Both the position numbers and the translations under genes were made by a program. A model generated the notes under the pieces. That model was not told where the DNA came from. It did no database searches and saw nothing but the letters and a program-made list of their open reading frames with translations. From the IMG/VR virus record IMGVR_UViG_2711768166_000010: a stretch of 4,492 bases of DNA, one strand, 5' to 3'. Below, piece after piece: positions 1,704-4,492 of the stretch (positions are counted from its first letter, which is position 1; every line of letters begins with the position of its first letter). The DNA is from a virus (Duplodnaviria > Heunggongvirae > Uroviricota > Caudoviricetes).

Positions 1704-2324
1704 ATGGCTTTTACCGACAAAGAAATGATTAAAGAAATCAAAGAACGTATCAGCAGCCTGGACGTACGAGACAATATTGAGCGCCGGGCTTATGAAATAG
1801 CGTTAGCCTCGCTGGAAGCTGAACCGGTGGCATGGCAGGTCACAATCACAAAAGACGGTCAGGACTCAGCCTCTACTATTTACCGTGACTGTGCAGAGAA
1901 AGATACATGGGTTCGGATACATGAGACACTTGGTTCTGTCGTACACGTCACTCCGCTTTACATGGCACCGCCAGCGCCGGTAATACAGGCTGATGTCGCG
2001 CAGGCAATTGAAAATCTCAAGCAGAAGTTAGTGGAATGCAATCGCTATAACTACTGCGCAGATGCAGTTAAAGGCGTAGAGGATGCTTGCCGCGCCACCA
2101 TGCTTCACGGTGTCAAACCTGTAAGCCAGACTTACAAGTTGAACAAGCTGTTTGGCAACTCTCCGGTAACTCCGGATGGTTGGGTTATGGTTCCTAAACA
2201 GGTAACGCCGGAAATCAGCAACGCGATAAACGTTGTGGGTCAACGCTGTACATGCGGAAATTGCTCTCAGCGGTTGTGGGATTTATTACTCGACGCCACA
2301 CAGCAAGGGGTTAACCGTGGCTAA
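1704..2324 (+). CDS. Hypothetical protein (206 aa) with a Cys-rich C-terminal half, possibly metal-binding
   Basis: ATG at 1704 preceded by AAGGA (1691-1695). Long clean frame. Cys clusters C-x5-C-x10-C (ECNRYNYCADAVKGVEDAC) and C-x-C-x2-C (CTCGNC). Stop TAA 2322-2324 overlaps the start of the next gene. Confidence 0.7.
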   Translation: MAFTDKEMIKEIKERISSLDVRDNIERRAYEIALASLEAEPVAWQVTITKDGQDSASTIYRDCAEKDTWVRIHETLGSVVHVTPLYMAPPAPVIQADVAQAIENLKQKLVECNRYNYCADAVKGVEDACRATMLHGVKPVSQTYKLNKLFGNSPVTPDGWVMVPKQVTPEISNAINVVGQRCTCGNCSQRLWDLLLDATQQGVNRG

Positions 2325-2601
2325 CCTGCAACTTGCCGTCAAAGGTGAATACTTCGATGCCATGATTCGCGGAGAGAAAACGGAAGAGTATCGCCTTGTT
2401 AATGACTACTGGAAAAAGCGCCTCGTTAACCGTAAGCATGACCGCCTGATTATCACAAAGGGATATCCGAAGCGCGACGATTCCAGCCGCAGAATTGATG
2501 TTCCGTATGACGGATATGAAGTGAAGACAATCACACATCCGCACTTTGGCGATAAACCGGTAAAGGTATACGCGATAAAGGTGAATATCGACACTGAATA
2601 A
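2317..2601 (+). CDS. ASCH-domain (PUA-like beta-barrel) protein, about 95 aa
   Basis: GTG at 2317 preceded by AAGGGG (2305-2310) and overlapping the upstream stop by 8 nt (GTGGCTAA). Near the N-terminus, GEKTEEYR fits the ASCH signature G-x-K-x-x-E-x-R, preceded by the typical hydrophobic/aromatic lead-in AVKGEYFDAMIRG. Start choice is uncertain: in-frame ATGs at 2233 and 2356 are alternatives. Confidence 0.6.
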   Translation: MANLQLAVKGEYFDAMIRGEKTEEYRLVNDYWKKRLVNRKHDRLIITKGYPKRDDSSRRIDVPYDGYEVKTITHPHFGDKPVKVYAIKVNIDTE

Positions 2602-2673: not shown

Positions 2674-3018
2674 ATGTCAGATTTGGCTATGAAGGTTTTG
2701 AAATGGCAATCGACTGGCGATGTTGGCATCAGTAGCGCAACTCTTGCCTCAATCGCATGTGGACTGAAAAAGAATATCTATGGTCATCACTTCGGTGCTC
2801 CACATGACGCAGCCGATTTCCGACGATGCGTTGCGCTTGTCGAGCAGATTCCAGAAATCAGGGATTCATTCGACAAGGTTGCAAAGCGCGTTCCGGCATT
2901 CAAAGGAATCCTCAACGAATGGGATTCCCTCGTTGCTCTGTTGAAGTCTGAAATGAAGATACACGGAAACAAAGCACCAGAGACTTACAGGAGAATCAGC
3001 GAGTTACGAAAGGACTAA
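2674..3018 (+). CDS. Hypothetical protein (114 aa), isolated gene between the terminators and xis
   Basis: ATG at 2674 preceded by GGAGA (2663-2667) at 6-nt spacing. Clean 114-codon frame to TAA 3016-3018. No motif I can assign to a family. Confidence 0.7.
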   Translation: MSDLAMKVLKWQSTGDVGISSATLASIACGLKKNIYGHHFGAPHDAADFRRCVALVEQIPEIRDSFDKVAKRVPAFKGILNEWDSLVALLKSEMKIHGNKAPETYRRISELRKD

Positions 3019-3107: not shown

Positions 3108-3455
3108 GTGGAAGAAGAAATCTTCACTCGTGAAGAGGCAGCGTCGTATCTGAAGGTAGACAAAGGCACTATCACGCAGTGGATACGAAGTGGACGACTT
3201 CAGGCCGCAAAGATAAATCCAGATAAACCTAAAAGCCCATATCGCATTTGCAAGTCAGACTGCATTGCGGCGCTTAAGTCTGTGAGACACAATAGCGCGG
3301 TGAATGCGGTTGATGTGCAGGAGGTTAAAGCATGTCAATCAAACTACGCGGTGGCACGTGGCACTGCGATTTCGTCGCGCCAGATGGATCAAGAGTTAGA
3401 CGCTCTCTTGAAACATCGGACAAGAGGCAAGCGCAAGAACTTCACGATCGTCTGA
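3108..3455 (+). CDS. xis: Excisionase / AlpA-like helix-turn-helix DNA-binding protein (recombination directionality factor)
   Basis: GTG at 3108 preceded by GGAGA (3097-3101) at 6-nt spacing. N-terminal FTREEAASYLKVDKGTITQWIRSGRLQAAKI is a typical excisionase-type HTH. Sits immediately upstream of, and overlaps, the integrase gene. The 115-codon frame runs 124 nt into int, so the true C-terminus is uncertain. Confidence 0.7.
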   Translation: MEEEIFTREEAASYLKVDKGTITQWIRSGRLQAAKINPDKPKSPYRICKSDCIAALKSVRHNSAVNAVDVQEVKACQSNYAVARGTAISSRQMDQELDALLKHRTRGKRKNFTIV

Positions 3456-4492
3456 AAGCAGAAGCGTGGAGAGTAAAAAATCTCGGAGAATCACCGAAAA
3501 AGCTATTCAAGGAAGCCTGCATACGGTGGCTGCGTGAGAAATCGGATAAGAAGTCCATTGATGATGACAAGAGCATTATATCGTTCTGGATGTTGCACTT
3601 CAGAGAAACCATTCTCTCTGACATAACAACAGAAAAAATAATGGAGGCGGTAGACGGGATGGAAAACCGCCGCCATCGCCTGAACTGGGAAATGAGCCGG
3701 GACAGGTGTTTGCGGCTTGGCAAGCCAGTGCCGGAGTATAAACCAAAGCTGGCAAGCAAAGGAACGAAGACGCGGCATCTGGCAATACTTCGCGCTATTC
3801 TCAATATGGCTGTTGAATGGGGATGGATTGACAGGGCACCCAAAATATCAACACCACGCGTTAAGAATGGACGAATCAGATGGCTTACAGAGGAGGAATC
3901 GAAGCGCCTGTTTGCAGAAATTGCTCCTCATTTCTTCCCTGTGGTCATGTTTGCAATCACGACAGGCCTTCGCCGTTCCAACGTTACAGACCTTGAGTGG
4001 TCACAGGTCGATCTGGATAAGAAAATGGCATGGATGCACCCTGATGAAACAAAAGCTGGCAATGCGATCGGAGTTCCTCTTAACGAAACTGCATGCCAGA
4101 TATTAAGAAAACAGCAGGGTCTCCATAAGAGATGGGTATTTGTCCACACCAAACCTGCCTACCGAAGCGACGGAACAAAAACAGCAGCGGTAAGGAAGAT
4201 GAGAACCGACAGCAACAAGGCATGGAAGGGAGCGTTAAAGCGGGCAGGCATTAGCAACTTCCGCTTCCATGACCTGAGGCATACTTGGGCAAGCTGGCTG
4301 GTTCAGTCCGGTGTCTCTCTTCTCGCACTTAAAGAGATGGGAGGATGGGAAACTCTCGAAATGGTTCAAAGATATGCCCACCTTTCAGCCGGGCATCTCA
4401 CCGAGCACGCGAGCAAAATCGATGCGATTATAAGTCGCAATGGCACAAATACGGCACAAGAGGAGAACGTAGTTTACTTAAATGCGAGGTAA
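3332..4492 (+). CDS. int: Tyrosine site-specific integrase (phage integrase family) with N-terminal arm-type DNA-binding domain
   Basis: ATG at 3332 preceded by GGAGG (3320-3324). N-terminus MSIKLRGGTWHCDFVAPDGSRVRRSLETSDKRQAQELHDRLKAEAW matches the arm-binding domain pattern of lambdoid integrases. C-terminal catalytic motifs are present: TGLRRSN (Arg), HDLRHTWASW (His-x-x-Arg) and EMVQRYAHL (Tyr nucleophile). Stop TAA is at 4490-4492, the window end. Confidence 0.95.
   Translation: MSIKLRGGTWHCDFVAPDGSRVRRSLETSDKRQAQELHDRLKAEAWRVKNLGESPKKLFKEACIRWLREKSDKKSIDDDKSIISFWMLHFRETILSDITTEKIMEAVDGMENRRHRLNWEMSRDRCLRLGKPVPEYKPKLASKGTKTRHLAILRAILNMAVEWGWIDRAPKISTPRVKNGRIRWLTEEESKRLFAEIAPHFFPVVMFAITTGLRRSNVTDLEWSQVDLDKKMAWMHPDETKAGNAIGVPLNETACQILRKQQGLHKRWVFVHTKPAYRSDGTKTAAVRKMRTDSNKAWKGALKRAGISNFRFHDLRHTWASWLVQSGVSLLALKEMGGWETLEMVQRYAHLSAGHLTEHASKIDAIISRNGTNTAQEENVVYLNAR

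Follow-up and report, generated by a model that had tools for sequence, protein, structure and literature searches.

The window, by which we mean the whole stretch of 4,492 nucleotides that was analyzed, was 100% identical to positions 4254214–4258705 (minus strand) of Escherichia coli E1 (NZ_CP104503.1) and represented the integrase-proximal end of a lambdoid prophage located beside tRNA-Thr (a thrW-type site). It contained ten ORFs on the same strand, the last two of which code for an excisionase and a tyrosine integrase. The gene order in E. coli E1 was cIII-kil-recT ... Ea22-like ... ASCH-114aa-xis-int-tRNA-Thr, with cIII, kil and the RecT gene situated upstream on the same strand. The gene of interest, here called the ASCH gene, lies after the recombination genes and before xis-int, on the strand of the pL operon, i.e., in the position of exo-xis (ea) genes, and phage 933W showed the same layout. 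The following features were identified in the window.

1–612, + strand: gene for an Ea22-like protein (Pfam Ead_Ea22 on residues 2–117)
614–973, + strand: ORF of 119 aa (PHROG 1621)
1704–2324, + strand: mosaic EaA/DUF551-like ORF of 206 aa with 7 Cys, apparently a neighbor of the ASCH gene rather than a dedicated partner
2305–2310, + strand: putative Shine-Dalgarno sequence AAGGGG, read from the sequence, 6 nt 5' of the GTG start and inside the 3' end of the upstream ORF
2317–2324, + strand: start/stop overlap GTGGCTAA of 8 nt, common to the 206-aa ORF and the ASCH ORF, indicative of translational coupling
2317–2601, + strand: gene for the predicted ASCH-fold protein of 94 aa (WP_045133284.1; PHROG 625; homologue of 933W L0064), based on the ORF and its translation
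2371–2394, + strand: ASCH octapeptide GEKTEEYR, residues 19–26 (G19-x-K21-x-x-E24-x-R26), at the start of the predicted strand beta2
2603–2624 and 2635–2654, + strand: two tandem hairpins resembling intrinsic terminators, right after the ASCH stop codon and each followed by a T-run
2674–3018, + strand: gene of 114 aa (PHROG 1229), part of the xis-int module; it follows ASCH in just 6 of 81 loci
3108–3455, + strand: excisionase gene (Pfam HTH_17)
3332–4492, + strand: tyrosine integrase gene (Pfam Phage_integrase), the prophage end at thrW

Several of the surrounding genes had features of their own. The Ea22-like protein carried a Walker-A-like segment (GFTGCGKS) in its C-terminus with weak APS_kinase and AAA_16 matches, and its gene starts at 58 in RefSeq and not at the first codon of the window. 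The 119-aa ORF contained a C-x-x-C...C-x-x-C pattern and a sub-threshold match to a TFIIB-type zinc ribbon (E 1.7e-4). The RefSeq integrase start (3338) is an ATC codon; judged from the sequence, the ATG located 6 nt earlier at 3332, with GGAGG 7 nt upstream, looks like a better start. The xis and int reading frames overlap by 124 nt.

The ASCH ORF extends from a GTG start codon at 2317 to a stop codon at 2599–2601, and the stop codon of the 206-aa ORF is the TAA at 2322–2324. The encoded protein is stand-alone, has a pI of 9.3 and contains the peptide AVKGEYFDAMIRGEKTEEYR. Its octapeptide fits the pattern G-x-K-x-x-[ETS]-x-R, a definition taken from a previous study (PMC9599836), and this was the sole occurrence of the pattern in the six-frame translation of the window. 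The ORF at 2317–2601, the 8-nt overlap and the G-x-K-x-x-E-x-R match given in a preliminary description of this DNA were all exact. A longer reading initiated at a TTG codon (2233–2601, 122 aa) was also considered; homologues located behind unrelated upstream genes have an ATG at the position of the GTG. When 81 loci (80 IMG/VR loci and the window) were compared, the start codon was found at the identical position in every one of them (ATG in 43 and GTG in 38), which ruled out the TTG reading. These loci contained 61 distinct alleles with zero internal stops and a mean pN/pS of 0.18; 2317–2601 is a genuine gene under purifying selection.

The gene was also widespread. In the public collection, the exact ASCH protein was encoded on 55 contigs, its cluster at 90% identity had 1,505 member sequences, and 751 related clusters were found in a 50%-identity library. 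Among 5,426 complete E. coli genomes, 1,675 had the gene, with up to five copies per genome. Besides, 332 phage records carried it, including virulent Jerseyvirus-type Salmonella phages, a Klebsiella jumbo phage (Eowyn) and Ralstonia phages. Matches were further observed at 106 places on plasmid records and on a 126-kb record labeled phage P1, and the distribution of the gene extended well beyond lambdoid prophages. Its occurrence in virulent phages suggests that the role of the protein is not tied to lysogeny, and a function linked to pL or to lysogeny control is thus not general. The closest named genes, L0064 of 933W and orf6 of Salmonella phage ST104 (both PHROG 625), are true orthologues with 86–87% identity and no substantive difference, and they occupy the same location, beside EaA-like or DUF4752 genes and xis-int. 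The exo-xis genes of lambda (orf60a, orf63, orf61, orf73, ea22 and ea8.5) lie in the same compartment and presumably share the same early pL expression (PMC8614690); Orf73/TraR-like and Ea22-like genes were direct neighbors of ASCH in many loci. No mention of an ASCH gene was found in the exo-xis literature retrieved.

We then asked how well the sequence supports the assignment to the ASCH domain, which the preliminary description had proposed from the octapeptide together with a Pfam search as a check. The Pfam ASCH model (PF04266) did match the window protein, but over residues 6–48 only and with 15.3 bits (E 0.033), short of the gathering cut-off of 21.2. Similarly sub-threshold matches to this model were obtained for 29 of 59 close and 24 of 75 distant relatives, the best E value among the 134 being 0.003. 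DUF3850 (PF12961) matched 10 of the 75 distant relatives weakly (best E 0.0017) and left the window protein itself unmatched. Sequence searches of the PDB that started from the protein alone or from two profiles yielded non-significant matches only, of which 3iuw, also the best structural match, had an E value of 0.47 in the motif region; we take 3iuw to be classified in DUF3850. NCBIfam gave no match for the ASCH protein or its neighbors, and PADLOC reported nothing relevant for the gene. PHROG 625, whose function label is unknown, was matched with an E value of 9e-49.

The predicted structure was more informative. An AlphaFold2 model built from 59 homologues showed a beta-alpha-beta arrangement followed by a barrel (best model: pLDDT 81.5, pTM 0.64); two of the five models were confident (pLDDT 81.5 and 81.0) and the others reached 52.7, 48.5 and 40.9. 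When this model was compared with the PDB using Foldseek, the top 16 matches were all ASCH-type chains (3iuw, 2z0t, 1xne, ZmASCH, YqfB, 1s04, 2dp9 and 1wk2), with TM scores of 0.39–0.61 and a probability of 0.99 for 3iuw. Two independent structure-comparison programs placed only ASCH structures at the top, and the matches in the BFVD library of viral structures were phage proteins annotated as ASCH or DUF3850. The barrel is what the preliminary description had expected of such a model.

Conservation pointed in the same direction. The octapeptide aligns in register with that of E. coli YqfB (G19, K21, R26), and the motif with Glu was conserved in 68 of 75 relatives that were 41–77% identical to the query. 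K21 was invariant in the family and G19, E24 and R26 were at least 90% conserved, and the other near-invariant residues (F13, W32, R35, Y50, H74 and F77) are aromatic or basic. The median pI of the family was 9.55, with values above 8 in 68 of 75 members. In addition, RefSeq and UniRef already name the protein as ASCH domain-containing. It could be argued that the octapeptide arose by chance in a protein that has no relation to ASCH, as the Pfam score is below threshold and the HMM searches against PDB sequences were non-significant. However, both structure-comparison programs rank ASCH structures alone at the top, the motif lies at its canonical position and is kept across the family, and even the sub-threshold matches cluster on ASCH and DUF3850, which makes coincidence highly improbable. 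The model therefore supports membership of the ASCH/PUA-like superfamily at the level of the fold, and the ASCH assignment of the preliminary description holds in this sense, with the Pfam model remaining sub-threshold. At the sequence level the protein forms a family of its own (PHROG 625) that is not captured by the Pfam model. Its identity to small stand-alone prokaryotic ASCH proteins (3iuw from E. faecalis, PH0355 of P. horikoshii, 2z0t, and PF0470 of P. furiosus, 1xne) was 15–23%, and in comparison with these small members the phage family has its own conserved signatures, namely W32, R35, G49-Y50-P51 and T-H-P-H-F-G.

Two characterized relatives suggest possible enzymatic activities. 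YqfB hydrolyses N4-acetylcytidine using K21, T24, R26 and E74 as catalytic residues (PMC9599836), and the phage protein might accordingly be an amidohydrolase of the YqfB/EOLA1 type, acting on N4-acylated cytidine or on another modified nucleoside or nucleotide. G19, K21 and R26 are in the YqfB register (PMC9599836), and the near-invariant His74 together with the THPHFG loop could supply an acid/base. However, of the YqfB catalytic set (Lys21, Thr24, Arg26 and Glu74) only K21 and R26 were recovered: the window protein and 68 of 75 relatives have Glu in place of the nucleophile Thr24, and there is no alignable equivalent of Glu74. Profile-profile comparison (hhalign) of the family with YqfB alone and with 77 YqfB orthologues aligned only the 17-residue motif region, with probabilities of 0.5–1.2%; the orthologues were collected from GTDB genomes and were 81–100% identical, so that this comparison addresses membership in the YqfB subfamily only. 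The setting also differs, as YqfB (9kyf, 9kyh) is a chromosomal housekeeping protein whereas the ASCH gene is a phage cassette. We regard an amidohydrolase of this type as unlikely, because Glu stands in place of the Thr nucleophile.

The second relative, ZmASCH from Zymomonas mobilis (5guq), has a similar barrel with a basic cleft and was among the structural matches of the phage protein. It is a nucleic-acid-binding protein with weak ssRNA-cleaving activity (PMC5615036). By analogy, the phage protein might be a weak Mg-dependent ssRNA nuclease that, early in infection, trims or degrades RNA of the host or the phage. In favor of this, the protein is basic and its motif Lys probably corresponds to the cleft residue Lys53 of ZmASCH (PMC5615036), but of Tyr47, Lys53 and Ser128 this is the only residue that could be equated, and by inference. 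Moreover, ZmASCH is larger (148 aa, with extra helices) and its own activity is weak, with a physiological role that is not understood. We give such a nuclease as little credence as the amidohydrolase. The protein may still have a catalytic role of some kind, as a nuclease or other hydrolase using His74/His76.

The preliminary description had further proposed that the ASCH protein and the 206-aa protein encoded upstream, which it called Cys-rich, may form a co-expressed, RNA-directed module of two components. We counted 7 Cys in the 206-aa protein, some of which form a C-x-C-x-x-C cluster (residues 182–187), although at 3.4% the Cys content makes the term a mild overstatement. The protein appears to be a patchwork of several PHROG families, with patchy or partial matches to PHROGs 5117, 60, 14306, 660 and 12449. 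No Pfam family was matched in a scan of this protein, DUF551 included; other NCBI records label the same protein as DUF551 domain-containing. RefSeq/PGAP divides the ORF into an N-terminal fragment annotated as pseudo (1704–1826) and a CDS that begins with the GTG at 1827.

Analysis of the 81 loci revealed at least 8 mutually unrelated clusters of genes that run into the start of ASCH, and nine clusters were found downstream. The upstream classes were as follows.

EaA/DUF551-like: 28 of 81 loci, including the window; a mosaic of 132–392 aa with the tail ...EVNRG
Family of unknown function, 86–134 aa: 24 of 81 loci
TraR/DksA-type zinc-finger protein (Orf73 in lambda): 16 of 81 loci
DUF4752: 9 of 81 loci
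Singletons: a Lar restriction-alleviation domain protein and three others

The overlap with the ASCH gene was the 8-nt GTGGCTAA for the EaA/DUF551-like and DUF4752 classes and a 1-nt TAATG or TGATG for the others; a 2-nt gap was the one exception. At all junction types other than that of the window, an equivalent GGAGG-like Shine-Dalgarno sequence was embedded. As the same kind of overlap accompanies every kind of upstream gene, it indicates generic operon coupling and is not evidence of partnership. The overlap is ordinary translational coupling in a tightly packed phage operon.

Some observations do favor a dedicated pair: besides the 8-nt overlap, the EaA/DUF551-like class is the commonest upstream and is also found upstream in 933W (L0065–L0064), and in-frame fusions of EaA-like or Ea22-like segments with ASCH exist among database proteins (P0121 and P0122). 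However, at least 50 of 81 loci have unrelated genes upstream with the same kind of overlap, the members of the EaA-like cluster have little in common beyond their tail, and the Cys-containing C-terminus of the window protein is found beside ASCH in only about 6 loci. The two genes also differ in distribution, the exact 206-aa sequence being present on 7 contigs versus 55 for the exact ASCH sequence, and the ASCH gene occurs in E. coli genomes and in virulent phages on the scale described above. With homology to other E. coli prophages breaking at the very junction of the two genes (see below), the genomic context largely refutes the proposed two-protein module, and we consider it very unlikely. 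The two fusions, and a third protein in which ASCH is joined to a weak, truncated RVT_1-like segment (P0209), may be real or may be artefacts of frameshift or assembly. Pfam scans of ten longer ASCH-containing proteins identified no informative fusion partner, with a weak truncated RVT_1 match and a weak SH3_18 match both below the cut-off.

Instead, the ASCH gene behaves as a unit by itself. Homology with other E. coli prophages starts at 2306–2318, and homology with phages mEp213 and mEp043, both of which are without ASCH, starts at 2597. Because these breakpoints coincide with both ends of the ORF, the gene appears to assort as a single-gene mosaic unit, and from these alignments we describe it as a free-standing cassette with recombination junctions at both ORF ends. 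The tandem hairpins behind its stop codon can be assigned to the downstream 114aa-xis-int module, since the match with mEp213 and mEp043 includes them even though ASCH is missing there. Reading through these hairpins presumably needs N antitermination.

We also examined distant relatives (42–54% identical to the query family members used), which formed 24 ASCH groups; their phages were diverse and often of high GC content. Neighbors in these loci were grouped by cross-locus clustering, and no conserved partner was found across the 24 groups. The commonest neighbor was a tyrosine integrase, located 0.3–1.9 kb downstream of ASCH in 9 of 24 groups, followed by SSB, which was upstream in 6 of 24. 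A DNA cytosine-5 methyltransferase was observed near ASCH in 3 of 24 groups, all in high-GC phages, for example about 300 nt downstream in locus L111 and upstream in locus L118; its proximity hints, though weakly, at a connection with DNA modification. In another locus (L064), the gene for a Lar restriction-alleviation domain protein was coupled directly upstream of ASCH. Separately, a 168-aa viral protein in BFVD annotated as Restriction alleviation protein (A0A8S5UN54) matched the ASCH model with a TMq of 0.73 and 25% identity, which suggests a Lar–ASCH fusion.

These neighbors are relevant to a further reading, in which the protein recognizes a modified DNA base (such as m6A or 5mC) and helps the phage against restriction-modification or other defence systems. 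Domains of the PUA superfamily (SRA, EVE, YTH and ASCH) have been described as modification sensors (PMC12191111, PMC11037411, PMC7641849), and the match to the restriction alleviation protein, the upstream Lar-domain gene and the C5-methyltransferases would all fit. However, the associations are few and come without a statistical test, PADLOC had no match, and no ASCH protein is known experimentally to read DNA methylation (PMC11037411). We consider this reading improbable, if somewhat less so than the enzymatic ones. Much the same may be said of a broader version, a counter-defence or host-takeover factor that senses, and perhaps removes, a modified base or nucleotide such as a methylated DNA base, an RNA mark of the ac4C type or an immune signal derived from a nucleotide: it is a minor possibility, which if true would explain why about one third of E. 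coli genomes carry the gene, why it occurs in temperate as well as virulent phages, and why it is occasionally paired or fused with Lar and found next to C5-methyltransferases.

Taken as a whole, the data are probably best explained by a protein that works alone, binds nucleic acid or a flipped base, and is expressed early from a mosaic cassette. It has been reported that ASCH and PUA-like domains bind RNA or DNA and flip bases (PMC5615036, PMC11037411, PMC7641849) and that expression of exo-xis genes falls in the very first phase of lytic development (PMC8614690). In characterized relatives, the octapeptide forms part of the wall of a positively charged cleft and of a pocket that takes up a nucleotide. 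By analogy with these proteins, and in view of its basic charge, the phage protein is most likely a nucleic-acid binder. The gene would be transcribed early in lytic growth, presumably on the N-antiterminated pL transcript. Ribosomes terminating on the upstream ORF would re-initiate at the embedded Shine-Dalgarno sequence and translate ASCH. The protein would then act by itself and hold single-stranded nucleic acid, or a flipped-out and possibly modified base, in a cleft formed by K21, E24 and R26; if the conserved residues cluster in the pocket, F13, W32, R35, Y50, H74 and F77 may also line it. In this way it may modulate some RNA or DNA transaction of the host or the phage during infection, and no complex with the 206-aa protein would be involved.

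The ASCH assignment is already public annotation, to which the sequence finding adds nothing, and the more interesting part of the preliminary description, the two-protein module, was not borne out. As a discovery, the locus is therefore of low interest. Literature searches on the ASCH domain in phages, in anti-defence and in the exo-xis region, and on L0064 and DUF3850, returned annotations and predictions only, with no functional study of the family, and papers that name phage ASCH genes repeat only an RNA-binding prediction made in 2006 (PMC11803447). There is nevertheless a modest upside, as the family is very abundant and uncharacterized in the literature searched: the gene is very common, occurring in E. 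coli genomes, virulent Salmonella phages and Shiga-toxin phages (933W among them). Identification of the ligand or substrate of this stand-alone phage ASCH domain would give a function to a large PHROG family labeled unknown, and it would also shed light on the exo-xis region, which is poorly understood and affects the choice between lysis and lysogeny in Stx phages.
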